Shown: piece by piece, positions 27,443 to 50,078 of the stretch
How positions within the stretch are numbered: the first letter of the stretch is position 1
How the letters are laid out: each line of letters opens with the position of its first letter
Source: Alphaproteobacteria bacterium
Lineage (GTDB): Bacteria; Pseudomonadota; Alphaproteobacteria; Rhodobacterales; Rhodobacteraceae
Assembly (NCBI GenBank): GCA_003697125.1
Contig: RFGB01000186.1
Coordinates: 1 to 58,541 of the forward strand
DNA length: 58,541 nucleotides
Direction: 5' to 3'
Program-made: the position numbers and the translations under genes
Notes under the pieces: model-generated
The model's input: only the letters and a program-made list of their open reading frames with translations
Told to the model about the DNA's origin: nothing
The model's database searches: none

Positions 27443-27500
27443 GGAGTTTCCTCCTGATGAAGCGACGCCCCCGGCGGGGTGCCGGGGGCGGGCCGGATGC

Positions 27501-29270: not shown

Positions 29271-29280
29271 GGCGTCCTCC

Positions 29281-31371: not shown

Positions 31372-31417
31372 TCCGCGTCTCCTCCCTGCGTCTGTCCCGT
31401 CGGCGGACCGGCGGGGT

Positions 31418-32518
31418 TCAGCCCATGTCGGGCACGATGGTCGCCCGTTCCGATCGCCAGCGCAGCGCCACCCGGGCGCCGGGTTCCATGCCTCTTCCCG
31501 CGATCCGTTCGCGGTGGGTCTCGATGCGCACGCTCTGCCGGTCGTCGAGGCGCACGCTGACATAGGCCAGCGGGCCGACCGCATCGATGCCGGTCACCGT
31601 GCCGGCGATGCTGTCCTCGCCCTCCTCGGGCGTGCTGTCCGGCGCCTCCAGCTTGACATATTCCGACGGCACCACCACCAGCGCCGGGCTTCCGACGGTG
31701 GCGGCGTCCGAGACGGCGACGCCGCGCAGGCGGCCGAAACGGGTCTGCACCGCGGCGGTGCCGGCGCCGGTTTCGGCCAGGGTGCCCTCGATGATCTTGT
31801 TGCGCCCGATGAAGCGGGCGACGAAGGGCGTGCGCGGACGGGTGTAGAGATCGAAGGGCGCCGAGATCTGCTCGACACGGCCGGCATTCATCACCACCAC
31901 GCGATCGCCCATCGACAGCGCCTCGGACTGGGCGTGGGTGACGAAGACGAAGGTGATGTTCAGATCGCGCTGCAGGATCTTCAGCTCCTCCTGGATCGAC
32001 CTGCGCAGATTGGCGTCCAGCGCGCCCAGGGGTTCGTCCAGCAGCAGGATCTCGGGTTCGGTGACCAGCCCGCGCGCCAGCGCGAGGCGCTGCTTCTGGC
32101 CGCCCGACAGCGACGCTTCCCGCGCATCGGCGACGTCGCCCAGCTCCAGCTTCTCGATCATCGCCTCGACACGGCGGCGGATCTCGGCCGCGGGCAGACG
32201 GCGCACCTCCAGACCGAAGGCGATGTTCTCGCGCACCGTCATGTGCGGGAAGATGGCGTAGTTCTGGAAGATGGTCGCGGTAGGCCGCTTCTCGGTGGGA
32301 ACCCCGGTCATGTCCTGGCCGCGGATCATCAGCCTGCCCGAGGTGATGCTCTCCAGCCCCGCGATCATGCGCAGGGTGGTGGTCTTGCCGCAGCCCGACG
32401 GCCCGACGAAGGAGATGAACTCGCCGCGCTCCACCTGCAGGTCGAATCCCTCCACGGCCACGGTGCCGCCGGGATAGACCTTGCGCAGCTTCACGAGTTC
32501 CAGGTCATACGCAGCCAT
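31418..32518 (-). CDS. ABC transporter ATP-binding protein (PotA/MalK-type), second NBD of the operon
   Basis: 366 aa with Walker A GPSGCGKTT, signature LSGGQKQR and a C-terminal TOBE-like domain. Confidence 0.9.
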   Translation of the reverse strand: MAAYDLELVKLRKVYPGGTVAVEGFDLQVERGEFISFVGPSGCGKTTTLRMIAGLESITSGRLMIRGQDMTGVPTEKRPTATIFQNYAIFPHMTVRENIAFGLEVRRLPAAEIRRRVEAMIEKLELGDVADAREASLSGGQKQRLALARGLVTEPEILLLDEPLGALDANLRRSIQEELKILQRDLNITFVFVTHAQSEALSMGDRVVVMNAGRVEQISAPFDLYTRPRTPFVARFIGRNKIIEGTLAETGAGTAAVQTRFGRLRGVAVSDAATVGSPALVVVPSEYVKLEAPDSTPEEGEDSIAGTVTGIDAVGPLAYVSVRLDDRQSVRIETHRERIAGRGMEPGARVALRWRSERATIVPDMG

Positions 32519-32579: not shown

Positions 32580-33803
32580 TCAGGCCGAGAGGAACTCGTC
32601 CCACTTGGCGATCAGATGGTCGTATTCGTCCGGCCACTGGTGCCAGTACTTCACATGCGCGGCGCGCTCCTCCAGGCTGCCGCCGTCGCGCACGTCGCCG
32701 GGCTGGATGCCGCGCTCGGGCGGACCCTGCCAGGGCTTGCCCTCGTACCAGAAGGCGTATTTCTCGGGCGGCATCACGTCCTTGATGTTGGTCGTGGGCG
32801 AGTAGTAGCCCTGCTCGGACACGATGATCGCCGGCGGCCCCGACAGCCAGTAGTCGGCATAGGCGTGCACCGCCTCGACATTGGGCGAATTGGCGATCAG
32901 GCTGATGCCGATCGACCAGGCGCGGTAGCCTTCCTTCGGCACGGCATACTTGCAGGGCACGCCCTGGGCCTTGACCGCCATCACCGCCGGCTGCCAGGCA
33001 TCGGCGAGGATCATCTCGCCCGAGGCAAGCAGGTTGACCAGTTCGCCGAAATCGCCCCACAGGGCGCGGAACTGGCCCTCCTTCTTCTTCGAGATCAGGA
33101 ACTTGGCCGCCTCGTCGATCTCCTCGACCGTCGGGTTGCCCGGGTTCTTGTTCTCCAGCATGCCCATCGAGGTCATCGCCAGCACCGCCTGGCCGAAGGC
33201 GATCAGCGGATCGACGTTCAGGCCGGTCTTGCCCTTGAACTTGGGATCGAACAGCGCCGTCCAGGTGTTGGCCTCCTCGTCCGAGACCAGGTCGGGCCGG
33301 TAGCCGATCGAGTCGAAGTTGAAGACGGTGGGCACCATCCACAGCAGGGTCTTGGCCTCGTCGGCCCAGATCTGGCCCGAGATCTGCGCCCGCGGCTCCA
33401 TGCGCGGATCGGTCTCGGTGAAGATCGGGCGGATGTTGGCCCAGTTCTTCAGCGCGCTGGTCGGGATCGGCTTGATCGTCTCGGTGATGATCACCGCAGG
33501 CAGGCGTTCGCCGATCGTCTCCCAGCAGTCATAGGCGGTCGAGCCCGACAGGAGCTCGGTCTGGGTGTTGGGGAAGATGTCGGCCTTGCCCGACACCGCG
33601 CGCACGCCCGACTTGGCCTTGAAGTCGTTCAGGATCCGCTCCTGCACCGTGACCGACAGGCCGACGGTGCGCAGCTCCTGATCCGACAGCGCCGCCCGGG
33701 CCATGCCGGGCCACACGAGGCCCGAGGAGGCGGCCAGCGCCCCGGCCCCGCCGAGGAAGCCGCGCCGCGTGGGGTGCAGCAGGCTTGGGTGAAGGATCTT
33801 CAT
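32580..33803 (-). CDS. PotD/PotF-type periplasmic substrate-binding protein with Tat signal
   Basis: 407 aa. MKILHPSLLHPTRRGFLGGAGALAASSGLVWPGMARA carries a twin-arginine motif (TRRGFL). Confidence 0.88.
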   Translation of the reverse strand: MKILHPSLLHPTRRGFLGGAGALAASSGLVWPGMARAALSDQELRTVGLSVTVQERILNDFKAKSGVRAVSGKADIFPNTQTELLSGSTAYDCWETIGERLPAVIITETIKPIPTSALKNWANIRPIFTETDPRMEPRAQISGQIWADEAKTLLWMVPTVFNFDSIGYRPDLVSDEEANTWTALFDPKFKGKTGLNVDPLIAFGQAVLAMTSMGMLENKNPGNPTVEEIDEAAKFLISKKKEGQFRALWGDFGELVNLLASGEMILADAWQPAVMAVKAQGVPCKYAVPKEGYRAWSIGISLIANSPNVEAVHAYADYWLSGPPAIIVSEQGYYSPTTNIKDVMPPEKYAFWYEGKPWQGPPERGIQPGDVRDGGSLEERAAHVKYWHQWPDEYDHLIAKWDEFLSA

Positions 33804-33849: not shown

Positions 33850-34602
33850 CTAGTAGCGGCCGACGACGAGTCCCCCGTCCACGGTGATGGTCTGTCCGGT
33901 GAGGTAGCGCGCCCCGTCCGAGCACAGGAACAGGATCACGTCGGCGATGTCCTCGGGCTCGCCCACCCGGCCCATGGGGATGAAGGCGGCGGCGGCCTCC
34001 AGCCCCTCCGGGCCGAGGCTGTGCTCGCGCGACAGCGCCTGGGCGGTGCGCACATAGCCCGGGGCCACGCCATTGACGCGGATGCCGTCGCGGGCCAGCT
34101 CCACCGCCAGCCCGCGCACCAGTCCGACCACGCCCGACTTGGCGGCCGAATAGTGCACATGCTGGTCCCAGCCGTAATTCGTGCCCATGATCGAGGACAG
34201 GCAGACGATCGCGCCGCCGCCGGCGCGGCGCATCCCCGGCACCGCCGGGCGGATGACGCGGATCATGCCCTTCAGGTCCACCTCGAAGGTGTGGTCCCAC
34301 TTCGCGTCGGTCAGCTGGTCCAGCGGCACGCGATGGGCGATGCCGGCGTTGCAGACCACCGCCCCCAGCGGGCCATGGGCCGCCTCGACCGCCGCGACCA
34401 CGGCCTCGGCCGCGGCGGTGTCGGTGACATCCAGCGCGTGGAACTGAGCACTGCCGCCCGCCCCGGCGATCGCCTCCGCCACCGCCGCGCCCTCATCCTC
34501 CAGCACATCGGTGACGACCACATGCCAGCCCGCGCGGGCGAAGGCGTGGGCCGTGGCCCGGCCGATGCCGATTCCCGCCCCGGTGATCAGGACCGTCTTC
34601 AT
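33850..34602 (-). CDS. SDR-family oxidoreductase
   Basis: MKTVLITGAGIGIGRATA...YSAAKSGVVGL. The ATG at 34602 overlaps the upstream SDR stop (ATGA). The 377-aa track ORF is an artefactual extension. Confidence 0.88.
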   Translation of the reverse strand: MKTVLITGAGIGIGRATAHAFARAGWHVVVTDVLEDEGAAVAEAIAGAGGSAQFHALDVTDTAAAEAVVAAVEAAHGPLGAVVCNAGIAHRVPLDQLTDAKWDHTFEVDLKGMIRVIRPAVPGMRRAGGGAIVCLSSIMGTNYGWDQHVHYSAAKSGVVGLVRGLAVELARDGIRVNGVAPGYVRTAQALSREHSLGPEGLEAAAAFIPMGRVGEPEDIADVILFLCSDGARYLTGQTITVDGGLVVGRY

Positions 34603-35345
34603 AGCATCACGTCCCCCGAATTCGGGCCGAGCGTCTGGCCCACATAGATGCGCGCATCCTCGCTGGCCAGGAAGGCGACGGTGGCCGCCACGTCCTCGGG
34701 CTCGCCGAAACGGCCCAGCGGCAGTTCCGCCGCCTTGGCCGCGCGCCATGCCTCGGACAGGCCCAGCACCAGTTCGGTGTTGATCGGGCCGGGCGCCACC
34801 GCGTTGACACGCACGCCGCGCTTGGACAGTTCGCGCGCCAGCGACTTGGTCAGTCCGATGATGCCCGCCTTCGCCGCGGCATAGTGGGCCAGTTCCACCG
34901 CGCCGATCTGGCCCAGCTGGCTGGCGATGTTGACGATCACCCCGCTGCCGGCCGCCAGCATGGACGGAACCGCGCGGCGGCATCCCAGGAAGCAGCCGCG
35001 CAGATGGACGGCGATCATGCGGTCCCAGTCCGCGGGGGTGATGTCGGTGAATGGCCGCTGCTGCAGGAAGCCCGCATTGTTCACCAGAAGCGTCACCCGG
35101 CCCCAGGCCGCCTCGGCGGCGGCGAACATGGCGTCGATGTCGGCTTCCCGGCTGACATCCCCGGGTGCGGCGATCGCGCTGCCGCCCGCGGCGGCAATCT
35201 CGCCCGCGACCGACTGCGCGGCCTCGGCGCGCAGGTCGTTGACCGCCACCCGCGCCCCCTCGGCGGCAAGGCGCAGGGCGATCGCCCGGCCGATGCCGCC
35301 CCCCGCGCCGGTGACCAGCGCGGCATGGCCCGACAGGCGGCTCAT
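34599..35345 (-). CDS. SDR-family oxidoreductase
   Basis: MSRLSGHAALVTGAGGGIGRAIA...YAAAKAGIIGL. The ATG overlaps the permease stop (ATGA). Confidence 0.88.
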   Translation of the reverse strand: MSRLSGHAALVTGAGGGIGRAIALRLAAEGARVAVNDLRAEAAQSVAGEIAAAGGSAIAAPGDVSREADIDAMFAAAEAAWGRVTLLVNNAGFLQQRPFTDITPADWDRMIAVHLRGCFLGCRRAVPSMLAAGSGVIVNIASQLGQIGAVELAHYAAAKAGIIGLTKSLARELSKRGVRVNAVAPGPINTELVLGLSEAWRAAKAAELPLGRFGEPEDVAATVAFLASEDARIYVGQTLGPNSGDVML

Positions 35346-36199
35346 GCGATCTCCTCCTGGATGCCGGTGGCGCGCATCCTGGCGCGCCGCACCGACAGCG
35401 CCATCAGGATGCCGTAGACCGACAGCAGCGCGAAGCTGAACAGCGTGGTCAGCACGCCGAAGGCGAACAGGTTGGGGTGAATCTCCACCGCGAAGGTGCC
35501 GTAGATGGCGATGGGCATGGTCACGTCCGACCCGGCGGTGAACAGCGTGCGGGGAAATTCGTCATAGCTGAGCGTGAAGGCGAACAGCATTGCCGACAGC
35601 ACGCCCGGGAAGATCATCGGGAAGGTGACCTTGCGAAAGGTGCGCGCCGGCGTGACCCCCAGCATCCAGGACGCCTCCTCGACCGAACGGTCGAAGCGGT
35701 TGAAGATGGCCAGCATCACCAGGAAGGCGAAGGGATAGGTATAGACCACGTGCAGCACGAAGGCCGTGCTCCACCAGTTGCGGTCGATGCCCAGATTGTT
35801 GGCCAGAAGCGCCATGCCCAGGCCCAGCAGCACGCCGGGCACGATCATGCCCAGCACCACCAGATAGAACACCAGGCCCGATCCGCGGAATCGTTCCCGG
35901 AACGCCTGGGCGGTCAGCGTGCCCAGGACGGTGGACACGACCATGGTCGCGAAGGCGAGCGTCAGCGAGCGCACCAGAGCCTCGCCGATCGGCAGCGGCG
36001 CCACGCGCGACGGCGGCGCGAAGCCCAGCACATGCCGATACCAGTAGGTCGACCATTCCAGGATCGGGAATTGAGGCCCGCCCTCGGGTCCCTTCTGGAA
36101 GGACAGGATGCCCATCACCACGAAGGGACCGTAGAGGAAGGCGATGAACAGCGCGGTATAGACCGCCAGCCCGCCGCGCAGGAACTTCAGATGATGCAT
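35342..36199 (-). CDS. ABC transporter permease (PotC-like)
   Basis: 285-aa polytopic membrane protein of the PotC/binding-protein-dependent family. Confidence 0.88.
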   Translation of the reverse strand: MHHLKFLRGGLAVYTALFIAFLYGPFVVMGILSFQKGPEGGPQFPILEWSTYWYRHVLGFAPPSRVAPLPIGEALVRSLTLAFATMVVSTVLGTLTAQAFRERFRGSGLVFYLVVLGMIVPGVLLGLGMALLANNLGIDRNWWSTAFVLHVVYTYPFAFLVMLAIFNRFDRSVEEASWMLGVTPARTFRKVTFPMIFPGVLSAMLFAFTLSYDEFPRTLFTAGSDVTMPIAIYGTFAVEIHPNLFAFGVLTTLFSFALLSVYGILMALSVRRARMRATGIQEEIA

Positions 36200-36209
36200 C
36201 CCCGCCCCC

Positions 36210-37088
36210 TCACAGCTCGCGCCGCAGATTGACCACGCGCAGCAGCAGCGTGACCACCAGCGCGGTGACGATGGTCAGGATCACCCCGGCCACCGCGGCG
36301 AAGGCCCATTTCAGGCTGCCCACCTGGGTGACGATGATGTTGCCCAGAAGGTTCACCTTGCGCCCCGACAGCGCCGATGCGGTGGCGAATTCGCCCAGCA
36401 CCATCACCGAGACGAAGATCGCCCCCACCACCACGCCGGGCAGCGACAGGGGCAGCAGGATCCTGCGGAAGATCGTCCAGGCCGATGCGCCCAGGTCGCG
36501 CGCCGCCTCGATCAGGCTGGGATCGATGCGCGCCAGCATGAAGGCGATCGGCCCGACCATGAACACGACATAGATCTGCACCATGCCGATGATCACCGAC
36601 AGTTCCGAGAACAGGAGCGCCTCGATCGGGGCGTCGATGATCCCCAGCTTCATCAGCACGATGTTGATCGCCCCCTCCTTGCCCAGCATCGGCCGCCAGG
36701 CCAGCACGCGGATCAGGAACGAGGTCCAGAACGGGATCACGCAGGTGACCAGCAGGACGGTCTGCACCGTCTTGTCGCGCACGAACTGGCCGATGAACAG
36801 CGCGGTGGGATAGCCGATCAGCAGGGTGATGACGAGGACGGTGAGCCAGATGCGCAGCGTGCGCAGAAGCGCCTCGACATAGGTGGTGGAGGAGAAGAAC
36901 GCCTCCCAGCTCTTGGTCGTCAGGTCAGGCTTGATCGCGAAGGTGGTCTGCGTCCAGAAGCTGACATAGACCATCATCGCCAGGGGCAGGACGAGGAACA
37001 GCAGCATCCAGATCACGCCCGGCGCCAGCAGCAGCAGCTGGCGCCTGCGGGCGGCTGCGCCCTGGGTCACGCTCGCGGCGGCCATCAC
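36210..37088 (-). CDS. ABC transporter permease (PotB-like)
   Basis: 292-aa membrane protein. The start is GTG 37088 or ATG 37085, either one coupled to the upstream stop. Confidence 0.88.
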   Translation of the reverse strand: MMAAASVTQGAAARRRQLLLLAPGVIWMLLFLVLPLAMMVYVSFWTQTTFAIKPDLTTKSWEAFFSSTTYVEALLRTLRIWLTVLVITLLIGYPTALFIGQFVRDKTVQTVLLVTCVIPFWTSFLIRVLAWRPMLGKEGAINIVLMKLGIIDAPIEALLFSELSVIIGMVQIYVVFMVGPIAFMLARIDPSLIEAARDLGASAWTIFRRILLPLSLPGVVVGAIFVSVMVLGEFATASALSGRKVNLLGNIIVTQVGSLKWAFAAVAGVILTIVTALVVTLLLRVVNLRREL

Positions 37089-38173
37089 GCCCTCCCCCCC
37101 TGCGCGGCGTCGACGCGCCGCCCGTCCTCGCCGAACAGATGCGCCGCGGCCGGATCCCAGTGCAGCACCCGCGCCTCGCCCTGGGCGAAGCGCAGCGGGT
37201 CGGACTGGCTGAGATGCCGCTCCACCTCGATGATCCCGCCATCGCGGCGCTGGAAGAAATACAGCACCCGGCTGCCCAGGAATTCGGCGGTCACGAATCG
37301 GCCCTCGATCGCGGGCCAGCCCTCGGGCGCCTGGTCGCCGATCTCCACCGCGTCGTGGCGCACCGCATAGGCGCGGGCATGCACGCCGGCGGGCAGCGGC
37401 AACCTGTCAGCGCCCGAGACGAAGGCGCCGTCGCGCGTCTCGCCCTCCAGCAGGTTGTAGGCATTGACGAAACGCGCCACCCGTGCGGTGGCCGGGCGGC
37501 CGAACACCTCGTCGGGCGGGGCAACCTGCACCGCCCGGCCGCCATCCAGCACGATCATCCGGTCGCCCATGGCCAGCGCCTCGGCCTCGTTGCCGGTGAC
37601 ATGCAGGAACGTCACCCCCAGCGTCTCGCGGATCCGGCGCAGCTCGACGGTCATCCGCTCGCGCAGATTCGCATCCAGCGCCCCGAGCGGTTCGTCCAGC
37701 AGGCAGATCCTGGGTTCGGTCACCAGCGTGCGCGCCAGCGACACGCGCTGCTTCTGCCCGCCCGAGATCTGCGACACCATGCGCCCGCCAAGGCCCGAAA
37801 GCCCCACCAGATCCAGCATCGCATCCACCCGGCGCCCCAGCTCGGCCGGGTCGGTGACCGGATCGACCAGCCGGTTGGCCAGACCGAAGCCGACATTCTG
37901 CGCGACCGTCATGTGCGGGAACAGCGCATAGTTCTGCTGCACGAAGCCAAGGCCCCGCAGATGCGCCGGCTTGTGGGTGATGTCCTCGCCATTCAGGAGG
38001 ATGCGGCCGCGGTCGGGGCGCTCCAGCCCGGCGATCAGCCGCAGCAGGGTCGACTTTCCCGAACCCGAAGGCCCCAGCAGGGTGAGATACTCGTCGTCCG
38101 CGACCATCAGATCCAGATCGGCGATCGCCGGACGGCCGTCATAGGACTTCGACAGCCCCCCGATCTCCATCAT
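37085..38173 (-). CDS. ABC transporter ATP-binding protein (PotA-type), first NBD of the operon
   Basis: 362 aa with Walker A GPSGSGKST and signature ISGGQKQR. Confidence 0.9.
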   Translation of the reverse strand: MMEIGGLSKSYDGRPAIADLDLMVADDEYLTLLGPSGSGKSTLLRLIAGLERPDRGRILLNGEDITHKPAHLRGLGFVQQNYALFPHMTVAQNVGFGLANRLVDPVTDPAELGRRVDAMLDLVGLSGLGGRMVSQISGGQKQRVSLARTLVTEPRICLLDEPLGALDANLRERMTVELRRIRETLGVTFLHVTGNEAEALAMGDRMIVLDGGRAVQVAPPDEVFGRPATARVARFVNAYNLLEGETRDGAFVSGADRLPLPAGVHARAYAVRHDAVEIGDQAPEGWPAIEGRFVTAEFLGSRVLYFFQRRDGGIIEVERHLSQSDPLRFAQGEARVLHWDPAAAHLFGEDGRRVDAAQGGRA

Positions 38174-38353
38174 GCGGCTTCGCCCCCCCGCGCCTGATCA
38201 GCCGAACCCATCGCTCACTCCCCCGCAAAACTGTGCGCCTTGTGCGCAAAAGTCAAAACAAAATCCGCCCCCTGCCCGAAAATCCCGACATCCGGCGGTC
38301 GACCGTTGCCAGACACCCCCCGGATGCGCCATTCTCGCCCCATGCCGAGCGGT

Positions 38354-38367
38354 CTTCGTCTACGAAG
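38354..38367. promoter_or_regulatory. Candidate GntR/FadR-type operator CTTCGT-CT-ACGAAG
   Basis: Perfect 6+6 palindrome with a GT-N-AC core, 31 nt upstream of the GntR gene ATG, in the 224-nt divergent spacer. Confidence 0.4.
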
Positions 38368-38397
38368 TGCATTTCGCGCGCTGCCGGGCCGGGGGTC

Positions 38398-39408: not shown

Positions 39409-39413
39409 CACCC

Positions 39414-40613
39414 TCATCCCCCGATCGCCCAGTCCCAGCCGCGGACCAGGTAGTTGTGTTCGCACATCACCGTGTCCCACACGACCACCCGCGACATGCG
39501 CGCGGAATAGTCGCCCCCCTCGCGGCTGTCGCCGGGGCCGAAGATGACCCGCCCCCAGGGGTCGCGGATGTCGCAGGCGGCGGGCTGCCCGCCATACCAG
39601 AAGTCCCATTCCGCCGCCGTCAGGCAGCGCCGCACCGTCTCGGGATTGGCCATGTAGGCCCCGGCGCGGGCCATGATCGCCCCGGCCCGGCCGTCGAGCC
39701 ACCAGTTCAGATAGTCATAGGCCGCATCCAGCGCCCATCCCGCCAGCGTCACCGACAGGCCCAGCCCGCCGAACCAGCCCCGATAGCCCTCGCGCGGGGT
39801 GGCCATGGCGACTGCAACCCCCTCGGCGCGCAGCCGCGTCACCCCGGACCACCACAGCGAGCCGATCATCGGCCCGCCCCCGCGCAACGCCGCCAGCGCC
39901 TCCTCCTCGTCGGTCCAGAAACAGCGGAAATGGCCCGCCACCCGCAGCGCGTGCAGCCGGTCGACCAGGGCGTCGATCTCCTCCAGCGTCAGGTCGCCCA
40001 GATCGCCGGGATGCATCTGGCCGCGCGCCTGCAGCGCCAGCAGCATGTCCAGCGACCCGATCGCGGCATCGGCCTGCAGAACCACCCGCCCCGCCCAGGC
40101 CGGGTCCAGCAGGTCGCCCCAGCTGGTCACCCCGGCCGGATCCGCCCCGACCACCGCGAAGCCGTCGGCATTGTGCACGGTGGGCAGCATGCTGATGCGG
40201 TCCGATTCGCTGTCGCCCAGGCTGCCATCCAGCTGCACAAACAGCCGGCGCGAGGGATCGCCGCCCCGCGCCCGCGGCCGGTCGGGGGCGATGCGCCCGG
40301 TGCGCGGCAGGGCGTTGATCTCGTCCCAGCGGGTGATGCGCGCCACCTCGATCGGCTGGATCGATCCGGCCGGCCAGATCAGGTCGATGTCGTGGAACCA
40401 CTGGTCGTAGACGTCGAAGCTGTCGGGGGACAGCGCGCCGCGGCGCTGCGCCGCGCTGCCGTCGAGGGTGATGAACTCGAAGTCCAGCCCCAGATCCTCA
40501 GCCGCCGCGCGGGTGACCGGGCGGATCTGGGTGACCGAGGTGCCCAGCACCCTGAGCGGCGCCCGCGGGCGCCGCACCGGGGGCGCGGCCAGCGCTGCGG
40601 CCTGGCCGGCCAT
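39414..40613 (-). CDS. PotD/PotF-type binding-protein paralog lacking an export signal
   Basis: 399 aa, clearly homologous to the 32580-33803 protein (PREGYRGWFGGLGL vs PKEGYRAWSIGISL; FWYGGQP vs FWYEGKP). It starts directly at the mature domain (MAGQAAALAAPPVRRPRAPLRVLGTSV), 5 nt after the pxpC-like stop. Confidence 0.8.
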   Translation of the reverse strand: MAGQAAALAAPPVRRPRAPLRVLGTSVTQIRPVTRAAAEDLGLDFEFITLDGSAAQRRGALSPDSFDVYDQWFHDIDLIWPAGSIQPIEVARITRWDEINALPRTGRIAPDRPRARGGDPSRRLFVQLDGSLGDSESDRISMLPTVHNADGFAVVGADPAGVTSWGDLLDPAWAGRVVLQADAAIGSLDMLLALQARGQMHPGDLGDLTLEEIDALVDRLHALRVAGHFRCFWTDEEEALAALRGGGPMIGSLWWSGVTRLRAEGVAVAMATPREGYRGWFGGLGLSVTLAGWALDAAYDYLNWWLDGRAGAIMARAGAYMANPETVRRCLTAAEWDFWYGGQPAACDIRDPWGRVIFGPGDSREGGDYSARMSRVVVWDTVMCEHNYLVRGWDWAIGG

Positions 40614-40618
40614 CCCTG

Positions 40619-41590
40619 TCAGGCGAGCGCGGCGCGGATGCGCGCCATCAGCGCGGCCCGTTCCCGGCGGGCGGCCAGCGCCTCCTCCATCCCCACCTGG
40701 CGGAACCGCACCGGCATGTGCGGCTGCAGCTGGCCGATCAGGTCCATGTCGGCCGAGATCACCGTGCCGATCATGAAATACCCCCCGCCCGAGACAGCGT
40801 CGCGGTGCAGCACGATGGGCTCGGTGCCGCCGGGCACCTGGATCGAGCCGTAGGGATAGCAGGCATCGGTGATGTTGGAGGGGTCCGAGCCCGCCCCGAA
40901 GGGCTGCCGGCGCGGCACGAATTCCAGCGGCCGGCCCCCGCGGAAGCGGTAGCCCATGCGGTCCGCCTCAAGCGCCACCTTCCATTCGTCCTCGAAGAAG
41001 GCGCGCTGCGAATCCCCGGTGATGCGGTGCCAGTAGAGCCCCGGCAGCACGCGCAGCTCGCAGGGGCTGGCGGGCAGCCGCCTGAGCGCCTCGGGCACGG
41101 TCAGGCCCGGGCGCGCGGCATTGCCCGGCCCCAGCGGCAGCCGGTCGCCCGCCGCGATGGCCCGCCCCTGGACGCCGCCCAGCGCGCCGATGGCATAGGT
41201 GGAGCGCGAGCCCAGATGCGGCGGCGTGGCGATGCCGCCCGACACCGCGACATAGGCCCGTGCGCCGGCCCTGAGATAGCCGAAGCCGAGGCGCTGTCCC
41301 GCCCGGACCGGGATCGCCGACCAGCCGGGCTGTTCCTCGCCGTCGAGGAGGACCGGCAGGTCCGCCCCGGTCACCGCCACGGTGGCATCGGTGGTGAATT
41401 CCAGCTCGGGGCCCATGAACACCGCCTCCAGCCCCGCGGCATCCTCGGGATTGCCGACCAGCAGATTGGCCGCGCGCAGCGCCAGCCGGTCCATCGCGCC
41501 GCCCATGGGTATGCCCAGATGGAAGTATCCCGGGCGCCCCAGGTCCTGGATGGTGGTCAGAAGTCCGGGCTTGATGACGTCAATTGCCAT
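40619..41590 (-). CDS. PxpC/KipA-family protein (biotin-dependent carboxyltransferase family; allophanate hydrolase subunit 2 domain)
   Basis: MAIDVIKPGLLTTIQDLGRPGYFHLGIPMGGAMDRLALRAANLLVGN is the AHS2/CT_A_B N-terminal signature; 323 aa. Confidence 0.88.
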   Translation of the reverse strand: MAIDVIKPGLLTTIQDLGRPGYFHLGIPMGGAMDRLALRAANLLVGNPEDAAGLEAVFMGPELEFTTDATVAVTGADLPVLLDGEEQPGWSAIPVRAGQRLGFGYLRAGARAYVAVSGGIATPPHLGSRSTYAIGALGGVQGRAIAAGDRLPLGPGNAARPGLTVPEALRRLPASPCELRVLPGLYWHRITGDSQRAFFEDEWKVALEADRMGYRFRGGRPLEFVPRRQPFGAGSDPSNITDACYPYGSIQVPGGTEPIVLHRDAVSGGGYFMIGTVISADMDLIGQLQPHMPVRFRQVGMEEALAARRERAALMARIRAALA

Positions 41591-42452
41591 TCAGGGCCTC
41601 CATCAGCCGCGCGTTGGTCCCGTCGATGTCCGCACTCCATTGGGCAAGATCGAAATCGACCTTCGCCATCCGCGGCGCCCAGCGCCCGGCCTCGATCTCG
41701 GCGGCGATGTGGTCGTGCTCCTCGCGGCCGATCGGCCGCCACCGGACGATGTCGCCGGGATTGAACAGCACCATGAAGTCGCGCAGATAGCTCACCGTCT
41801 GGGTCGGATCGTAGATCGGCATCGGCGTGATGCCGAACATCTGGTATCCGCCCGCCCCGCGCACGGAATAGATGCAGCCGAAGCAGCCGCCATGGCCCAC
41901 GGTCTGCTTTGGCGTATCGGTGCGCGGGCGCAGGTATTTCGGCACCTCGAGCTGACGTTCGCGTTCGACCAGCTGATAGAGGAAGGGCAGCCCGGCGACG
42001 AATCCGACCATCGAGACGAACCAGGGCGCGGAATGATGCCTTTCGATGAAGGCATCGGCGTCCGGCAGGCCGTTCACGCGGGCGGCATAGTCGAGATCGG
42101 TGCCCGAGGGGTCCTGATGGCGTTCGCGGAAGCGCATCAGCGTCTCGTGCGTCCAGGGGTCGCGGTAGAAGACCGGCACCTCGATGATGCGGGTGGTCAG
42201 CCGCTGGGGCGCGCTCTCGGCGGCGCTTTCCAGCGCCTTCAGCTCGGCCAGCATCGCGTCGGGGGCGATGACGTCGGGATCGAAGCGCACCTGGAACGAG
42301 GCATTGGCGGGGCAGATCTCGGTGACGCCGCGGATCTGCGCCTCGCGCACCGCCTTGGTGATCGACAGGCTCTTGAAGAAGGCGTCGAGCGACATCTCCT
42401 CGTCGATCTCGACGAAGATGTGCTCGTCGCCGCCGAAGGAATATCGGGTCAT
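41580..42452 (-). CDS. PxpB/KipI-family protein (allophanate hydrolase subunit 1 domain), long form
   Basis: 290 aa with AHS1/CT_C_D-like sequence (EICPANASFQVRFD...MVGFVAGLPFLY...GGYQMFGITP). The ATG follows GGGAGG, and its end overlaps the next gene by 11 nt. Confidence 0.82.
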   Translation of the reverse strand: MTRYSFGGDEHIFVEIDEEMSLDAFFKSLSITKAVREAQIRGVTEICPANASFQVRFDPDVIAPDAMLAELKALESAAESAPQRLTTRIIEVPVFYRDPWTHETLMRFRERHQDPSGTDLDYAARVNGLPDADAFIERHHSAPWFVSMVGFVAGLPFLYQLVERERQLEVPKYLRPRTDTPKQTVGHGGCFGCIYSVRGAGGYQMFGITPMPIYDPTQTVSYLRDFMVLFNPGDIVRWRPIGREEHDHIAAEIEAGRWAPRMAKVDFDLAQWSADIDGTNARLMEALNGN

Positions 42453-42469: not shown

Positions 42470-43831
<1,362 letters not shown>

Positions 43832-43842
43832 CGCCGCGCCCC

Positions 43843-44079
43843 TCAATCCATTTCCGCCAGGACCGCGCCGGCCATCACCGGCTCCTCGTTCTCGACGCGG
43901 AAGCGCAGGTTGCTGCCGGCCTCCTCGGCCTTGACCTCGTGGAAGGTCTTCATCACCTCGACCAGCCCGATCACCTGGCCCGCCGCGACGCTGCCGCCAT
44001 CCTCGACGAAGGGCGGCTGGTCGGGGGCGGGGCGGCGGTAGAAGGTGCCGGGCAGGGGCGAGCGGATTTCCTTTGCCAT
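43843..44079 (-). CDS. Short biotin carboxyl carrier protein (biotinyl domain only, 78 aa)
   Basis: MAKEIRSPLPGTFYRRP...GQVIGLVEVMKTFHEVKA contains the biotinyl-lysine motif (E-V-M-K). It lacks the N-terminal half and linker of housekeeping AccB. Confidence 0.88.
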   Translation of the reverse strand: MAKEIRSPLPGTFYRRPAPDQPPFVEDGGSVAAGQVIGLVEVMKTFHEVKAEEAGSNLRFRVENEEPVMAGAVLAEMD

Positions 44080-44109
44080 GGGCGGGTTCCCTTTCGGCTG
44101 TGCTGAGGT

Positions 44110-44889
44110 TCAGTCGATCTCGAGATCCATCGGCGCGGCGATGGTGATGCCGGCCTCCAGCAGCGCCTCGCGCACCGCGCGCCCGATCGCCAGCGCGCCG
44201 GGCGTGTCGGAATGGAAGCAGATCGATTCGAAGGCGATGTCGATGTCGTCGCCCTCGACGGTGCGCACCTTGCCCTCGCGACAGGCGCGCACGCATTTCG
44301 CCGCCACCTCGGCGGGGTCGAGCGGGCGCATCCGCCGCGCGAAGACGATCGAGCCCGAGCGGTCGTAGTCGCGGTCGGCATAGAATTCGCGGATCACCGG
44401 CTGGCCCATCTCGGCGGCGATGCGGGCGGTCTCGGAGATGTGCATGCAGTAGACAAAGAGCTCCGGCCCGGTGCGCTGCAGCGCCTCGATCATGAGCGCC
44501 GACAGCTCGGCATCGCGGGCGGCGGTCATGTACAGCGCGCCATGCGGCTTGACATGCTGCAACGCCACCCCGTGGCGGCGGCCGAACTCGCGCAGCGCGC
44601 CCAGCTGATACAGGATGTCGTTGACCAGCTCCTCGGGCCGGGCGGCAATCGTGCGCCGGCCGAAGCCGCGCAGGTCCTGATAGCCGGGATGCGCGCCCAG
44701 ACCCACGCCATGTTCCGCGGCCAGCCGCACCACGCGATCCATGATCGAGGGATCGCCCGCATGGAAGCCGGTGGCGACATTGGCCGAGGAGACGATCGGC
44801 ATCAGCGCCTCGTCGGGCGCCTCGCCCAGGGTCCAGTGGCCGAAGCCCTCGCCCATGTCGCAGTTCAGATCGACCGATGCCCGGTACAT
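44110..44889 (-). CDS. LamB/YcsF (PxpA) family protein
   Basis: [19 protein letters not shown]...[14 protein letters not shown]...LGAHPGY...[11 protein letters not shown] is the LamB_YcsF signature. The ATG follows GGGGAGGAAG. Confidence 0.9.
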
Positions 44890-44965
44890 CGCTTCCTCCC
44901 CTGTCGGCACGGGATGCTGCATCGCTTCAGCGCCCCGCAGAAGTTCTTTTTTCGCTGGCCGCGAT

Positions 44966-44993: not shown

Positions 44994-45908
44994 ATGAGCT
45001 TCAACCTGCGGCATCTGAAGTATTTCATCGCCACCGCCGAGCTGGGCCAGGTCAGCCGCGCGGCGGTGGAGCTGTCGGTCAGCCAGTCGGCGGTGACCAC
45101 GGCGATCCGCGAGATCGAGGCCCGGCTGGGCGCCCGGCTGTTCGACCGTTCGGCCCATGGCATGGTGCCGACCGAGACCGGCCGGCGCTTCCTGTCCGCG
45201 GCGCGCGACATCCTGCACAAGGTGGACGAGGCGCTGCAGCTGGCCGCCGCGCCCGAGGTCGAGGGCAGCCTGACGGTGGGGGCCACCTACACGGTGATCG
45301 GCTATTTCCTGCCCCATCACCTGGAGCGTCTGGCCAGCGCCCTGCCCGGCCTGTCGCTGCGCCTGCACGAGATGACGCGCGAGATGATCGAGGAGGCGCT
45401 GATCGCCGGGCGGATCGACATCGCGGTGGCGCTGACCTCGAACATCACCGATCCCGAGCTGGAGACCGAGACGCTGATCCGCTCGACCCGGCGGCTGTGG
45501 ACCGCCTCGCGCCATCCGCTGGCGCGGCCGGGGGTCGGGCTGGCCGAGGTGGCGCGCGAGCCCTATGTGATGCTGACGGTGGACGAGGCCGCCCACACCG
45601 CCATGCGCTACTGGTCGGCCACGCCCTGGCGGCCGCGGGTGGTGCTGCGCACCTCCTCGGTCGAGGCGGTGCGCAGCCTGGTCGCCGGCGGGCAGGGGGT
45701 GTCGATCCTGTCGGACATGGTCTACCGGCCCTGGTCGCTGGAGGGGCGGCGGCTCGAGGCGGTCGATCTGGCCGATCCGATCCCGCCGATGGATGTCGGG
45801 CTGGTCTGGCGACGGGGCATCGAGTTCTCGCCCCAGATGGCCGCCTTCCGCGATCACTTCCGCGCCCGCTTCCACGGCCCGCAGCTTCCCGGCGGCCGCG
45901 CCGGCTGA
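44994..45908 (+). CDS. LysR-family transcriptional regulator
   Basis: [52 protein letters not shown] is a LysR HTH followed by a substrate-binding domain. It is divergent from the carboxylase operon. Confidence 0.9.
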
Positions 45909-45921
45909 ACGCCGTCGCGCC

Positions 45922-47412
45922 TCAGGGGTCAAGCCAGCTGTCCGCATCCGACAGCGGCACCTGGAAGCGGCTGGCGGGCCGGGTGCGCGCGCCCCACGCG
46001 CGCAGCACCGCCTTCTCGGCCGCGCGGGCATCGACCTCGCGCCGGATCACGGCGGGATCCCACCCCGCCAGCACCCGCGCGGACAGGGCCGCGCGCAGCC
46101 CCGCATGGGGCGGGCTGTCCCACAGGTCGCGGGTCTCGTCGGGATCGGCGGCCAGATCGAACAGCATCGGGCGATGCCCCTCGACATGGACATATTTCCA
46201 CCGCCCCGCGCGGATCATGCGCTGGGTGGTGGGCTCGCGCCCGGTCCAGACCGAGGCGGTGTCGGTGACGTATTCGCAGAAGGTCTCGTCCAGCCAGGGC
46301 GCGGCGGGATCGCGGGCGATGCCCAGCAGGCTGCGCCCGTGCGAGCGCGGCAGGGGCGGCGCGCCGGCGGCATCGATCAGCGTCGCGCCGACATCGATCA
46401 GGTTGACCACCCTGTCGCAGCGCGCCCCTTCCGGCAGCCGCCCCGGCCAAGCGAGGATCAGCGGGATGCCGGCCGATTCCTCGAACATGGTGTTCTTCCA
46501 CCACAGCCCGCGTTCGCCGGCATGTTCCCCGTGATCCGAGGCATAGACGATCAGGGTGTTGTCGCAAAGCCCGGCGTCGCGCAGCGCGGCCAGCACCTGG
46601 CCGATGCGCCGGTCCAGCGCATGGACAAGCCCCCAATAGGCGGTGCGGGCGCGCAGCACCGCCTGGGGATCGCCCTCGGTGCAGCCCTCGGCCCGCCAGC
46701 GGGCGACCCAGGGATGTTCCCGCGCGGGCGGGGCCAGCCGCGGCGGCCCGATGCGCCCGGCAAAGCGGTCGTAATCCGCCGGGCGGGCGACGAAGGGGCA
46801 ATGCGGCAGGATGAAGCCCACCTGCATCATGAAGGGCGTGTCGTCGCCCGCCGCGCGCGCCCGGCCCAGCTCGGCCAGCCGTGCACAGGCCAGCCGCGCG
46901 GTCAGCTCGTCCACCACCTCATAGCCCGACTGCCCCCGCCCCGACAGGGCGAGCGCGCGCGCCAGCCCGCCGGGGCCGGGGCCGCTCGGCCCCTGGGCCC
47001 CGGCCAGCGGCCCCAGCCGCTGGCGCTCCACCCCCAGCCAGTTCGGCGCGCAGTCGCCGGACAGCCGCTCGGCGAAGCCGTGCAGCTGGTCGGGACCGAT
47101 CAGATGCATCCGCCCCACGCAGATCGTGCGCCAGCCCGCCGCGCCCAGCGCATGGGGATAGCCCGGCAGGTCGGGGGCCAGCGCGTCTTCCAGCGTCCAG
47201 CAGGCCTGCTCGTGGGGCCAGCGCCCGGTCAGCAGCGACATGCGCGATGGCGTGCAGATCGGCGCGGGGCAGCAGGCATTGGTGAAGGTGACCCCGCGCG
47301 CGGCCAGCGCGTCGAGATGGGGCGTCGCCCCGTGCGGGTCGCCATAGGCGCCGCAGACCCGGCGGGCGTGCTGGTCCGAGAACAGGAACAGCATGTCGGG
47401 CGGGCGGGGCAT
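45922..47412 (-). CDS. Sulfatase (Cys-type formylglycine family), no signal peptide
   Basis: MPRPPDMLFLFSDQHAR...CTPSRMSLLTGRWPHE carries the CxPxR-xxxLTGR sulfatase signature; 496 aa. Confidence 0.88.
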   Translation of the reverse strand: MPRPPDMLFLFSDQHARRVCGAYGDPHGATPHLDALAARGVTFTNACCPAPICTPSRMSLLTGRWPHEQACWTLEDALAPDLPGYPHALGAAGWRTICVGRMHLIGPDQLHGFAERLSGDCAPNWLGVERQRLGPLAGAQGPSGPGPGGLARALALSGRGQSGYEVVDELTARLACARLAELGRARAAGDDTPFMMQVGFILPHCPFVARPADYDRFAGRIGPPRLAPPAREHPWVARWRAEGCTEGDPQAVLRARTAYWGLVHALDRRIGQVLAALRDAGLCDNTLIVYASDHGEHAGERGLWWKNTMFEESAGIPLILAWPGRLPEGARCDRVVNLIDVGATLIDAAGAPPLPRSHGRSLLGIARDPAAPWLDETFCEYVTDTASVWTGREPTTQRMIRAGRWKYVHVEGHRPMLFDLAADPDETRDLWDSPPHAGLRAALSARVLAGWDPAVIRREVDARAAEKAVLRAWGARTRPASRFQVPLSDADSWLDP

Positions 47413-47415
47413 CGT

Positions 47416-48588
47416 TCAGTCCAGCGGCGGGGTGCGATAGAGCGTCCGGCCCCCGATGCGGATCTCGACCTGCTGGAGATAGGGGGCGAGCGCGGCGGTG
47501 TTCACCTCGACCCCCAGACCCGGCGCGTCGGGGGCGCGGATCGCGCCATCCGCGATGGGCAGCGGCGCGACCGGCACCGCCCGGGCCAGGGCGCTGGGCC
47601 GGGCGGGGTATTCGCAGATGTCATGGCGCGACAGTCCGGCATAGGGCTGCAGCGAGGCCGACAGGGCCAGATGGGTGGTGAAGCAGTGATTGACATAGAC
47701 CGCCCCGCGGGCATCGGCGTGGCGGGCCGCGGCATGGGCCGGGCCGATGCCGCCGATGCGGCCGGTGTCGATCTGCAGGAAGCGCACCCGGCCGTAATCG
47801 ACGACATGGCGCGCCATGGCGAGGTTGTGCGCCGCCTCGCCCCCGGCCAGACCCACCGGGCTCTGCGCGGCCAGCGCGGCATAGGCCTCGTAGGCATGGG
47901 CGGCGAAGGGCTCCTCCAGCCACAGCGCGCCGGCGGCCCGAAGCGCGGGCAGGCGCGCCGCCGCGGCGGCGACATCCTCGCCGAAGACCTGGCCCGCATC
48001 GACCATCAGCAGCCCGTCGCCGCCGATCCCCTCGCGCGCGGCGGCGAACTGGTCGGCATCCGCCCGGGCGCTGCCGGTGCCGATCGGCCCCCAGCCCAGC
48101 TTGACCGCCGTGAAGCCTTGCGCCCTGGCCTCGCGGCAGCGCGCGCGGGTCTCTTCGGGCGTGTCGCCGAACAAGAGCGAGGCATAGGGCCGCTTCGGCG
48201 CGCTGTGGCGATGGCCCAGCAGCCGCCAGACCGGCTCGCCATGGCGGCGGCCCAGCAGGTCCCACAACGCGGTCTCGAGCCCCGACAGGGTATGGGGCGC
48301 CTGCAGCAGGTCCATGCTGTTGCGCGCCACCCTGACCGCGATGGCGGCGATGTCGGCGGGCGAGTCGAGCCGCGCCCCCAGCACCGAGGCCGCGACCGGC
48401 TGGCAGGCGCCATGGGACATCGGACAGACGAAGGCGGCGATGGAGGGCAGCGGCGCGGCCTCGCATTCGCCCCAGCCGACATGGCCCCCCGCCGCGACCC
48501 GGACCAGAAGCGCATCCTGGCTGCCATCCGCGGCCGCCGTCACCTCGGGCATCGCGAGATAGAAGAAGTCGACCGCCTCGATCCTCAT
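47416..48588 (-). CDS. Enolase-superfamily enzyme (mandelate racemase / muconate lactonizing family, MR-like subgroup)
   Basis: 390 aa. Metal-ligand region MVDAG / LEEP / GGE, strand-6 motif LQIDTGRIGG and a following His (VNHCF), as in acid-sugar-dehydratase-type members. Confidence 0.85.
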   Translation of the reverse strand: MRIEAVDFFYLAMPEVTAAADGSQDALLVRVAAGGHVGWGECEAAPLPSIAAFVCPMSHGACQPVAASVLGARLDSPADIAAIAVRVARNSMDLLQAPHTLSGLETALWDLLGRRHGEPVWRLLGHRHSAPKRPYASLLFGDTPEETRARCREARAQGFTAVKLGWGPIGTGSARADADQFAAAREGIGGDGLLMVDAGQVFGEDVAAAAARLPALRAAGALWLEEPFAAHAYEAYAALAAQSPVGLAGGEAAHNLAMARHVVDYGRVRFLQIDTGRIGGIGPAHAAARHADARGAVYVNHCFTTHLALSASLQPYAGLSRHDICEYPARPSALARAVPVAPLPIADGAIRAPDAPGLGVEVNTAALAPYLQQVEIRIGGRTLYRTPPLD

Positions 48589-50078
48589 GCCGCCCCGCGA
48601 CGGTAGAGCGTGGCGCGCGGGGTGAAGGTGGCGTCGGGGTCGAGCGGGAACATCGGCCGCGCGCAGATCCGGTGGCCGAGCCGGGCGATGTCGGCCGAGG
48701 TCGCCCCCGGCGCGTCGATGTTGAAGTTGCGCCGGACCCAGGCGTCATACATGTGGCGTTCCACATGGGGCGACTTGACGACGATCAGGTCGAAGTCGCG
48801 CGGGTTGCAGCCATTGGCGAAGTAGAGCGCGCGATCGAACAGGCTGACGCTGCGCGAGAGCACCACGACGGTCATGCGCTTCCAGCGCAGCACCGCGCAG
48901 GGTCCGGCATCGATCGGGGTGCCCATGGTCTCCAGCCGCGCCCGGCCGTCGGAGATGAGCGCCACCTCGGCCTCGACCGGCATCGGCGTGAAGCGCCCGG
49001 GGTCGATCGCCCCGCCCAGCGTCACCCGGATCCGCGCCCCCACCCCGGCGGCGTGGGCCGCCGCCGCCGCGGCGGGATCGACGATCTGGGCCAGCACCCG
49101 GCCGGGATAGCCGGCCGCGTCCAGCGCCCGCAGGATGGCGTTCGAATCGCCGGTGGCGCCCGAGGACGTGGCGTCGGCGGCGTCGGTGAACACCACCGGG
49201 CCATCCAGCACCCGGGCCTGGGCGATGGCGCGCGGCAGCGGCACCAGCCGCGCCTGCATCCGGTGGCGCAGCGCCCAGAACTCGCCGGCAAGGCGCAGCG
49301 CCTCGTCGCGGGCGACCGCCCCGTCGCCGGCGGTGGTCACCAGGACCTGGCTGCACAGTTCGGGCACGTCGGTGAAGGGATTGCCGATCATCACCGCCGC
49401 GGCCAGCGCGCGGCCCTCGGCCTGCAACCGCCGGCATTCCAGGATCAGGTCGCCATAGCAGCCGGTGGCGGTGATCAGCTCGTCCCCGCGCACCAGCGCC
49501 GGGATCACCACACGCGCGGTGCAGGGGGGCGGTCCGCCCTGCATCAGCCCGATCAGCAGCCGCGCCGCCCTGGCGCCGGTATCGGCGAAATCGACATGGG
49601 GATAGGTGTGATAGACCGCCAGCGCGTCGATCTGGCGCAGCATGCGGTCGGTGCAGATCCCGTGCAGGTCGAGGGAGATGACCAGCGGCCGTTCCGGCCC
49701 CAGCATGCGGCGGATCTCGGCCAGGAGATGGCCCTCGGGGTCGAGTTCGCCCACCGCCGCCATCGCGCCGTGCAGCGAGGCATAGACCGCGTCGGCCTCG
49801 CCGATCCGGGCGGCCACCGCGTCTAGGATCTCGGCCGACAGGCGCCGCCAGCCATCGGCCGACAGGATGCCCGCGCTGCCCGCCCGCGCGGCGATGGCGG
49901 GGATCACCTCGATCCCGGCCGCCTCGAACACCGCCAGCGCTCCGCCGATCTCGGTGTTCAGGCCGCGATGGTCCAGCATCGCCGCGCCATGGGCGATGTC
50001 GAAATTGGCGTATTCCGACGGCAGCGGGTTGAAGGAGGAGACCTCCTGCTTGCAGTCCAGCATCAGGATCCGGGCCAT
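48585..50078 (-). CDS. M81-family metallopeptidase (MlrC-like)
   Basis: MARILMLDCKQEVSSFNPLPSEYANFDI... is the MlrC N-terminal domain signature; 497 aa. Its stop overlaps the downstream ATG (ATGA). Confidence 0.85.
   Translation of the reverse strand: MARILMLDCKQEVSSFNPLPSEYANFDIAHGAAMLDHRGLNTEIGGALAVFEAAGIEVIPAIAARAGSAGILSADGWRRLSAEILDAVAARIGEADAVYASLHGAMAAVGELDPEGHLLAEIRRMLGPERPLVISLDLHGICTDRMLRQIDALAVYHTYPHVDFADTGARAARLLIGLMQGGPPPCTARVVIPALVRGDELITATGCYGDLILECRRLQAEGRALAAAVMIGNPFTDVPELCSQVLVTTAGDGAVARDEALRLAGEFWALRHRMQARLVPLPRAIAQARVLDGPVVFTDAADATSSGATGDSNAILRALDAAGYPGRVLAQIVDPAAAAAAHAAGVGARIRVTLGGAIDPGRFTPMPVEAEVALISDGRARLETMGTPIDAGPCAVLRWKRMTVVVLSRSVSLFDRALYFANGCNPRDFDLIVVKSPHVERHMYDAWVRRNFNIDAPGATSADIARLGHRICARPMFPLDPDATFTPRATLYRRGAA

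Follow-up and report, generated by a model that had tools for sequence, protein, structure and literature searches.

Signal-less PotD-fold binding proteins linked to GntR regulators: a putative family of cytoplasmic sensors in Proteobacteria

AmiC and NasS are binding-protein homologs without an export signal that stay in the cytoplasm, where each binds the small molecule of its pathway and controls a separate regulator through a ligand-sensitive complex (PMC3795266). NasS still has the ligand residues found in its exported relative, has no signal and is routinely annotated as a transporter component (PMC3795266). The subject of this study is a protein of a comparable kind, here named SBP', which is encoded on the minus strand at positions 39414-40613 of a 58,541-nucleotide contig of an alphaproteobacterium (RFGB01000186.1; the whole contig is referred to as the window). 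Like AmiC of the AmiC-AmiR system in the amidase operon of Pseudomonas aeruginosa, SBP' sits in an amide-breakdown cluster, and like NasS of the NasS-NasT system of nitrate assimilation it keeps its ligand residues and is annotated as a transporter component. The folds differ, however, as AmiC is of the LivJ type (class I), NasS of the NrtA type and SBP' of the PotD/PotF type. The partners differ as well: AmiR and NasT are RNA-binding antiterminators with ANTAR domains, whereas the partner of SBP' is a DNA-binding GntR/FCD repressor with an effector domain of its own. Complexes of AmiC and NasS with their regulators have been described, while the pairing of SBP' is known here from genes and fusions. 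SBP' and its regulator are thus best regarded as an analog in logic and not as a member of either family.

SBP' shares its fold with YdcS and with PotD and PotF, the polyamine-binding proteins of ABC importers, and it keeps the equivalents of D168, W229 and W255 of PotD. SBP' differs from PotD and PotF in having no signal peptide, in about 60 extra residues that include a C-terminal extension and in not depending on a permease of the ATP-binding cassette (ABC) type, as it also occurs in clusters with transporters of the major facilitator superfamily (MFS). A binding-protein fold behind a DNA-binding domain is familiar from the LacI/GalR and LysR families and from the AraR branch of the GntR family. 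Fusions of the type GntR-FCD-SBP' likewise place such a fold behind a DNA-binding domain, but the module is here mostly a separate protein, is of the PotD type and is added onto the FCD effector domain. Finally, the window neighbours of SBP' are homologs of LamB/PxpA, KipI/PxpB and KipA/PxpC together with a biotin carboxylase (BC) and a biotin carboxyl carrier protein (BCCP). Related systems on that side are the PxpABC 5-oxoprolinase and the accessory proteins of urea/guanidine carboxylases. We know of no binding-protein-fold subunit in any of these enzymes, and SBP' does not track them across genomes.

In three proteobacterial classes SBP' was found to be firmly tied to a GntR/FCD regulator, and in two lineages the two are fused. 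Our preferred reading, held with slightly more confidence than doubt, is that SBP' is a cytoplasmic ligand-binding sensor working with the neighbouring GntR repressor. It belongs to an undescribed, widespread family of cytoplasmic PotD-fold proteins partnered with GntR regulators, putatively sensors of the AmiC/NasS kind.

The GntR regulator as constant neighbour and fusion partner

Loci were annotated by tblastn with the proteins of the window and of a Pseudomonas syringae locus. A total of 80 species-representative loci were fetched, reaching Halomonas, Pseudomonas, Acinetobacter, Burkholderia, Variovorax, Marinobacter and Lonsdalea. Immediate neighbours were counted in all 80, and the wider company of SBP' in the 59 that extend 8 kb or more to each side of the gene. 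A GntR/FCD homolog was found near SBP' in 58 of the 59 loci, and in the remaining one (L065, Vreelandella) an ordinary GntR-FCD gene was identified by Pfam directly upstream, which brings the count to 59 of 59. The other companions were short-chain dehydrogenases (SDRs; 50 loci), a polysaccharide-deacetylase-like hydrolase (42), a CobW-type GTPase (39), a conserved small open reading frame (ORF; 39), an amidase (38), an ABC system with a binding protein exported by twin-arginine translocation (Tat; 27), an MFS transporter (21), carboxylase genes (16) and hydantoinase genes (A, 10; B, 11). As with AmiC and NasS, the linkage to a regulator gene is conserved.

The regulator gene is an immediate neighbour of SBP' in 42 of the 80 loci, convergent in 37 and co-directional in five. 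Immediately upstream lies CobW in 28 loci, KipA in 19 and the deacetylase in seven. An earlier note on this DNA had raised the question whether orthologs stay next to KipA-like genes, and these counts answer that most of them do not. The pair of SBP' and GntR genes was also observed beside a gamma-glutamyltranspeptidase in Burkholderia, a TctC-type receptor/transporter in Vreelandella and a single dehydrogenase in Lonsdalea. The Pseudomonas syringae locus has no ABC permease and reads GntR, divergent amidase, deacetylase, MFS, SDR, SDR, small ORF, CobW and SBP'; the Pseudomonas SBP' gene ends its operon, with overlapping start and stop codons.

In the window, the GntR gene is convergent with SBP' and the two stop codons are 5 nt apart (39409-39413). 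The transcripts of the two genes must overlap as antisense RNA because there is no space for terminators between the stops. In Oceanicola the two ORFs overlap by 11 nt (L002 11190-11200).

Fusions were found in which both partners form one chain. P0124 (753 aa) consists of a two-winged-helix GntR regulator with FCD in residues 1-345 and of SBP' in residues 361-747. The regulator half is 41% identical to the window regulator over its whole length (E 7e-58) and the other half is 44% identical to SBP'. This protein was found on several contigs from several samples and its architecture recurs in at least 27 clusters (745-757 aa, 67-100% identity), including a metagenome-assembled genome (MAG) of Roseiarcus. 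The P0124 locus contains hydantoinase A/B, a deacetylase, an SDR and peptidases and no carboxylase. In P0232 (605 aa) an ordinary GntR-FCD regulator is joined to a binding protein of the other clade of the family, which is a second and independent event. The AlphaFold2 model of P0124 (pLDDT 84.3) has a disordered 19-residue linker, and a predicted TM score (pTM) of 0.81 despite that linker suggests that the halves are packed in a defined docking. To our knowledge the GntR-FCD-SBP' architecture is not among the described GntR subfamilies. An assignment of the 753-aa relative as a KipA fusion was rejected, as its N-terminal half is GntR/FCD and not a carboxyltransferase.

The divergent promoter region between the GntR gene and the ABC operon was found to contain a pair of conserved palindromes, each about 26 bp long and resembling TTGaCTTTtGTGCACaAAGTgCAA, and palindromes occur at the same positions in about 30 loci. 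In an operator search by position weight matrix (PWM), the site at the -35 box of the ABC operon scored 25.1 and shuffled sequence gave zero to two hits at or above the threshold. No other good PWM site was found in the window, and neither here nor in 20 related loci did the PWM find a GntR operator upstream of LamB or of SBP', so that control of the carboxylase operon by GntR is unsupported. The absence of operators upstream of SBP' suits a sensor that is needed before induction in the alphaproteobacterial clusters. The carboxylase operon is probably controlled by the LysR-type regulator, and SBP' in the window is presumably expressed with it.

The window regulator, with its 336 aa and two winged-helix domains, is larger than ordinary FadR-type proteins of about 230 aa. 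The predicted operators are unusually long and contain three or four GTGCA-like elements, which would fit four DNA-reading heads per dimer.

Fold, binding cleft and absence of an export signal

The AlphaFold2 model of SBP', made from a 59-sequence alignment, has a pLDDT of 92.8 and a pTM of 0.90 and shows a class II two-lobed binding-protein fold with a ligand cleft. The best Foldseek matches in the PDB are PotD, PotF and YdcS (14-17% identity, E about 1e-15, TM 0.65-0.80), and no solved structure nearer to SBP' than PotD was found; the Pfam and NCBIfam matches are weak (SBP_bac_6/8, YdcS). A profile alignment to full-length PotD places the ligand residues D168, W229 and W255 at D182, W254 and W280 of SBP', and these three are invariant both in the SBP' family and in the Tat paralog. 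The cleft thus appears to be retained, and its ligand is probably not a polyamine because E171 and D257 of PotD are replaced by Ile and Gly.

More than 1000 homologs of SBP' were found, and orthologs among them are 58-81% identical to it. Searching 1.8 billion representatives returned 796 clusters, and the family is small and distinct, being set apart by a conserved C-terminal extension (FWYxGxP...GxxRxGG...W). The identity among orthologs and 33 invariant positions argue against a decaying remnant. Public annotation labels these proteins as "extracellular" or "ABC transporter" binding proteins, which is wrong about their location and probably wrong about their function. Full-text literature searching found neither the SBP' family nor the cluster nor GntR/binding-protein fusions described; a single candidate paper turned out to deal with the Zur regulon.

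The ORF of SBP' is real and spans 39414-40613; a feature span drawn to 40660 in the earlier note also took in a spacer and KipA codons. The start codon is the ATG at 40613, which is the first ATG, GTG or TTG after the in-frame upstream stop and lies 5 nt past the stop of the KipA/PxpC-like gene (TGA-CAGGG-ATG), as that note had reported. The N-terminus reads MAGQAAALAAPPVRRPRAPLRVLG, with 19 residues ahead of the first beta strand. In Pseudomonas SBP' starts MSITLRVLGT, with only four or five residues ahead of that strand. Short, variable and hydrophilic N-termini, followed by APAVxRxRxxLRVLGTSVTQ, are also shared by the 120 nearest homologs (58-81% identity), which belong to Rhodobacterales, Hyphomicrobiales, Sneathiella, Pelagibius and further groups.

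For a survey of signals, each gene was read back to its farthest in-frame start. Neither a Tat nor a Sec signal was found from any in-frame start in any of 90 SBP' genes across Alpha-, Beta- and Gammaproteobacteria, and so these proteins lack the export signal expected in the binding protein of an ABC importer. Seven loose matches to the twin-arginine (RR) pattern occur among the 90, and they are RRRPAL directly before strand 1, RR of the mature protein in contig-cut genes or out-of-frame overlap with the upstream gene. The maximal N-terminal hydrophobicity has a median of 0.38 in the SBP' genes compared to 1.32 in the co-clustered exported paralogs, of which 36 of 38 have the RR motif as a positive control. 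ABC genes lie near SBP' in fewer than half of the loci (27 of 59, with an MFS transporter instead in 21 and neither in others). The island's ABC transporter has its own Tat-exported binding protein. Signal absence in all 90 genes, the MFS clusters and the GntR fusions support the proposal that SBP' is a binding-protein homolog that acts in the cytoplasm. As in AmiC and NasS, the missing signal is combined with retained ligand residues.

The similarity between SBP' and this Tat-exported protein was confirmed. BLASTP aligned 318 aa at 29% identity (E 6e-38), covering residues 84-394, and in the MAFFT alignment the similarity reaches as far as strand 1 (LRVLGTSVT against LRTVGLSVT). The paralog does begin with a textbook twin-arginine signal (MKILHPSLLHPTRRGFLGGAGALAASSGLVWPGMARA). 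SBP' is not a recent duplicate of it, as the two are 25-29% identical and fall in separate clades, with closer Tat-bearing relatives found elsewhere. Those Tat-bearing members are 32-39% identical to SBP', compared to 40-51% for the signal-less forms among the distant full-length relatives. In a rough neighbour-joining tree the signal-less forms make up one clade with a single Tat-bearing member inside it, and the island's Tat protein is in a different clade. Signal loss is ancient and family-wide.

The exported members inspected carry Tat and not Sec signals (13 of 13 distant members had the RR motif, as did the 36 of 38 co-clustered paralogs), which is unusual for bacterial binding proteins. 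Export of the Tat type may explain the easy evolution of signal-less cytoplasmic versions: signal loss alone would yield a working intracellular receptor because Tat substrates already fold in the cytoplasm.

A vestigial RR motif had been seen upstream of the ATG. The in-frame translation does give ...HPRRARLTG-M, but the motif was ruled out as chance and a by-product of the KipA coding sequence. The RR pair is present in 23% of the stop-free 12-aa stretches in all six frames of the window, in 33% of those in the same shifted frame of real genes and in 25% of those within KipA. HPRRARLTG is the +2 frame of the KipA codons for ...ARIRAALA* and is constrained by KipA, and many RR pairs occur in the shifted frame of orthologous loci for the same cause. 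In any case no RR vestige could survive, because the signal loss predates the split of the forms in Alpha-, Beta- and Gammaproteobacteria.

The proposed sensor and its alternatives

As a sensor, SBP' would bind the small-molecule inducer of the pathway inside the cell, perhaps the same compound that the Tat paralog binds outside. The GntR repressor would sit on the two palindromic operators of the divergent GntR/ABC region, and ligand-induced closure of SBP' would alter how it touches the repressor, so that a co-repressor is released or an anti-repressor engaged. The outcome would be de-repression of the transporter and dehydrogenase genes, and in the fused lineage the same switch would operate within one chain. 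In the window SBP' would be co-transcribed and translationally coupled with the LysR-controlled LamB/BCCP/BC/KipI/KipA operon, solely because this operon occupies the variable upstream flank. In this scheme we infer that SBP' touches the regulator, which ligand it binds and in which direction the effect goes. More tentatively, and with the chances in our view a little below even, SBP' may be the first example of a free-standing Venus-flytrap sensor of the PotD type for a GntR repressor, in a family that keeps the exported, the cytoplasmic-partner and the fused stages in living genomes.

Several points weigh against a sensor. The window sequence is held almost solely by hot-spring metagenome assemblies (runs X1-X5), all of them DNA, and no RNA runs holding it were found. 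The count of 59 of 59 alone is no proof of partnership, as any core gene co-occurs with the regulator of its cluster. SBP' is translationally coupled to the CobW-type GTPase at the end of a catabolic operon in 28 of the 80 loci and follows KipA in 19, positions that resemble those of a pathway component more than of a regulator. The regulator has its own effector domain (FCD), so that a second sensor is not obviously needed, and a pTM value taken without a map of predicted aligned error (PAE) says little about an interface.

The best placed of the other explanations, although we hold it to be unlikely, is that SBP' is a core cytoplasmic component of the pathway. It could use the binding-protein fold as an enzyme, serve a CobW-type metallochaperone as client or adaptor, or buffer the substrate and hand it on, keeping the imported compound for the amidase, the deacetylase or the lactam-opening enzymes. 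Its position as the last gene of the Pseudomonas operon, the frequency of CobW immediately upstream, the co-occurrence with SDRs and the deacetylase and the very high conservation with many invariant residues all agree with such a role. On the other hand, CobW, the deacetylase and the small ORF are missing from the window and from other loci that keep SBP', the sole universal neighbour is the regulator, and SBP' stays by GntR amid unrelated enzymes. Enzymes are rarely found in conserved fusions with a DNA-binding protein, a setting that is typical of sensor domains. Furthermore, the residues conserved in the clade are the cleft residues of the exported paralog, with no new catalytic-looking set.

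The earlier note had suggested, as an example of a cytoplasmic role, that SBP' captures substrate for the biotin-dependent LamB/BC/BCCP/KipI/KipA enzyme or regulates it as one of its subunits, and that its gene was captured as the last one of the carboxylase operon. The arrangement is as described in the window, where only 5 nt part the two genes, and in Roseibium and Oceanicola the SBP' start overlaps the KipA stop; KipA is immediately upstream in nearly a quarter of the loci. An enzyme subunit should, however, co-occur with its enzyme, and the carboxylase is missing from 43 of the 59 loci, including all Beta- and Gammaproteobacterial loci (among them those of Pseudomonas, Halomonas, Acinetobacter and Burkholderia), the fusion loci and 11 close alphaproteobacterial orthologs. 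In Pelagibius, Hoeflea, Jiella, Ruegeria sp. KLH11 and a Sneathiella MAG there is no carboxylase and SBP' still lies by GntR and the ABC operon; the genes upstream of SBP' are heterogeneous in the carboxylase-less loci. In Sneathiella marina a gene for gamma-aminobutyrate (GABA) transaminase parts KipA from SBP' while GntR stays adjacent. The carboxylase operon comes with a LysR regulator of its own and behaves like a unit that can be separated. It is, from the comparison of loci, one of several alternative neighbours at a variable boundary, and we regard a role of SBP' in the enzyme as improbable.

That SBP' is still exported to serve the ABC transporter, from a non-canonical upstream start or by hitch-hiking on its signal-bearing paralog, is very improbable: Tat can carry signal-less partner proteins, the exported relatives are Tat substrates and the Ala-rich N-terminus in the window has a hydrophobicity of 0.98, at the low edge of real signals, but the upstream frame is KipA coding sequence without an ATG, GTG or TTG, the maximal extensions of the 90 genes are signal-free, ortholog N-termini are hydrophilic and not conserved, an exported paralog is lacking in 32 of the 59 loci, an MFS transporter serves in 21, and the SBP' domain is fused to a cytoplasmic DNA-binding protein.

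The island in the window and the meaning of the family

The features of the window that bear on SBP' are listed in Table 1. Among the recurring enzymes of the island, LamB/KipI/KipA with biotin carboxylase, hydantoinase A/B, a PuuE-like hydrolase and an amidase-signature enzyme act on amides, cleaving them or opening cyclic ones. They are accompanied by two dehydrogenases and, in one genome, by GABA transaminase. Such a set suggests that a lactam or some other cyclic amide containing nitrogen is broken down. GABA may be a product of the pathway, as the transaminase of Sneathiella hints, and could arise for instance from a lactam of the pyrrolidone type.

Table 1. Coordinates of SBP' and of associated features in the window
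Feature	Position	Strand	Basis or remark
Operator-like half of a ~26-bp palindrome, TTGACTTTTGCGCACAAGGCGCACA	38241-38258		Overlaps the -35 box of the ABC operon
Second operator-like palindrome	38357-38382		Just upstream of the GntR start
GntR-family regulator, two winged-helix domains and FCD, 336 aa	38398-39408	+	Pfam; gene call in L005; fusion identity
SBP', signal-less PotD/PotF-fold binding protein, 399 aa	39414-40613	-	ORF, ATG start; weak Pfam SBP_bac_6 match; AlphaFold2/Foldseek; homologs
5-nt spacer (40614-40618) and KipA C-terminal codons	40614-40660	-	Shifted frame reads HPRRARLTG
KipA/PxpC-like carboxyltransferase subunit (CT_A_B)	40619-41590	-	Pfam E 1.4e-87; NCBIfam urea amidolyase-related
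KipI/PxpB-like carboxyltransferase subunit (CT_C_D)	41580-42452	-	Pfam/NCBIfam domain matches
Biotin carboxylase, 453 aa	42470-43831	-	Domain matches; start MELSGRR
Biotin carboxyl carrier protein, 78 aa	43843-44079	-	EVMKT biotinylation motif
LamB/YcsF (PxpA-like) lactam-utilisation protein	44110-44922	-	First gene of the carboxylase operon
LysR-type regulator	~44994-45908	+	Divergent from LamB
ABC ATPase (37085-38173) and two permeases (36210-37088, 35342-36199)	35342-38173	-
Two short-chain dehydrogenases (34599-35345, 33850-34602)	33850-35345	-
Tat-exported binding protein of the ABC transporter	32580-33803	-	Distant paralog of SBP'
Second ABC ATPase (31418-32518), hydantoinase/oxoprolinase A (29281-31371) and B (27501-29321)	27501-32518	-

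The GABA transaminase of Sneathiella marina (L004 8507-9802) is an NCBIfam equivalog match to 4-aminobutyrate transaminase with 823 bits against a cutoff of 724. In the window, an isochorismatase-family hydrolase (26741-27559) and a flavin oxidoreductase of the Old-Yellow-Enzyme type (25527-26744) lie 3' of hydantoinase B. The combination of hydantoinase and isochorismatase-family amidase recalls the route of creatinine breakdown through N-methylhydantoin and N-carbamoylsarcosine.

The core of the cluster across the three proteobacterial classes consists of an amidase, a PuuE-like deacetylase-family hydrolase, an MFS or ABC transporter, two SDRs, an ORF of about 100 aa and a CobW/COG0523 GTPase (for example L087 3194-11185, L002 19368-21200 and L004 19361-21182). 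The PuuE-like hydrolase is 63-89% identical between classes and the small ORF has no family match. The window lacks the deacetylase, the small ORF and CobW in the whole of its 58.5 kb and has hydantoinase A/B in their place.

In the carboxylase operon, the long ORF at 42470-44296 overstates the biotin carboxylase by 155 spurious N-terminal residues. The carrier gene, at 78 aa, is below the ORF-list size cut-offs of 80 and 150 aa, and a Biotin_lipoyl gene occupies the same position in loci L001, L002 and L004. The divergent arrangement of LysR and LamB recurs in Roseibium. Past the LysR gene, the minus strand at 45922-50078 encodes a sulfatase, a protein of the mandelate-racemase/enolase superfamily and a peptidase of the M81/MlrC type, which are seemingly unrelated to the island. 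The GC content of the window is 70.7%.

The tightest local coupling of SBP', 5 nt after KipA, was misleading and comparison across genomes alone showed the constant partner, which is a warning for operon-based prediction of function. SBP' is carried by hundreds of species of Alpha-, Beta- and Gammaproteobacteria. If it is indeed the sensor of a GntR repressor, it would represent a new two-protein sensing design in one of the largest families of bacterial regulators, and the family would provide a natural series in which the recruitment of binding-protein folds by transcription factors can be followed. SBP' together with its operator pair would then be a ready biosensor module for the amide or lactam of this widespread catabolic cluster.

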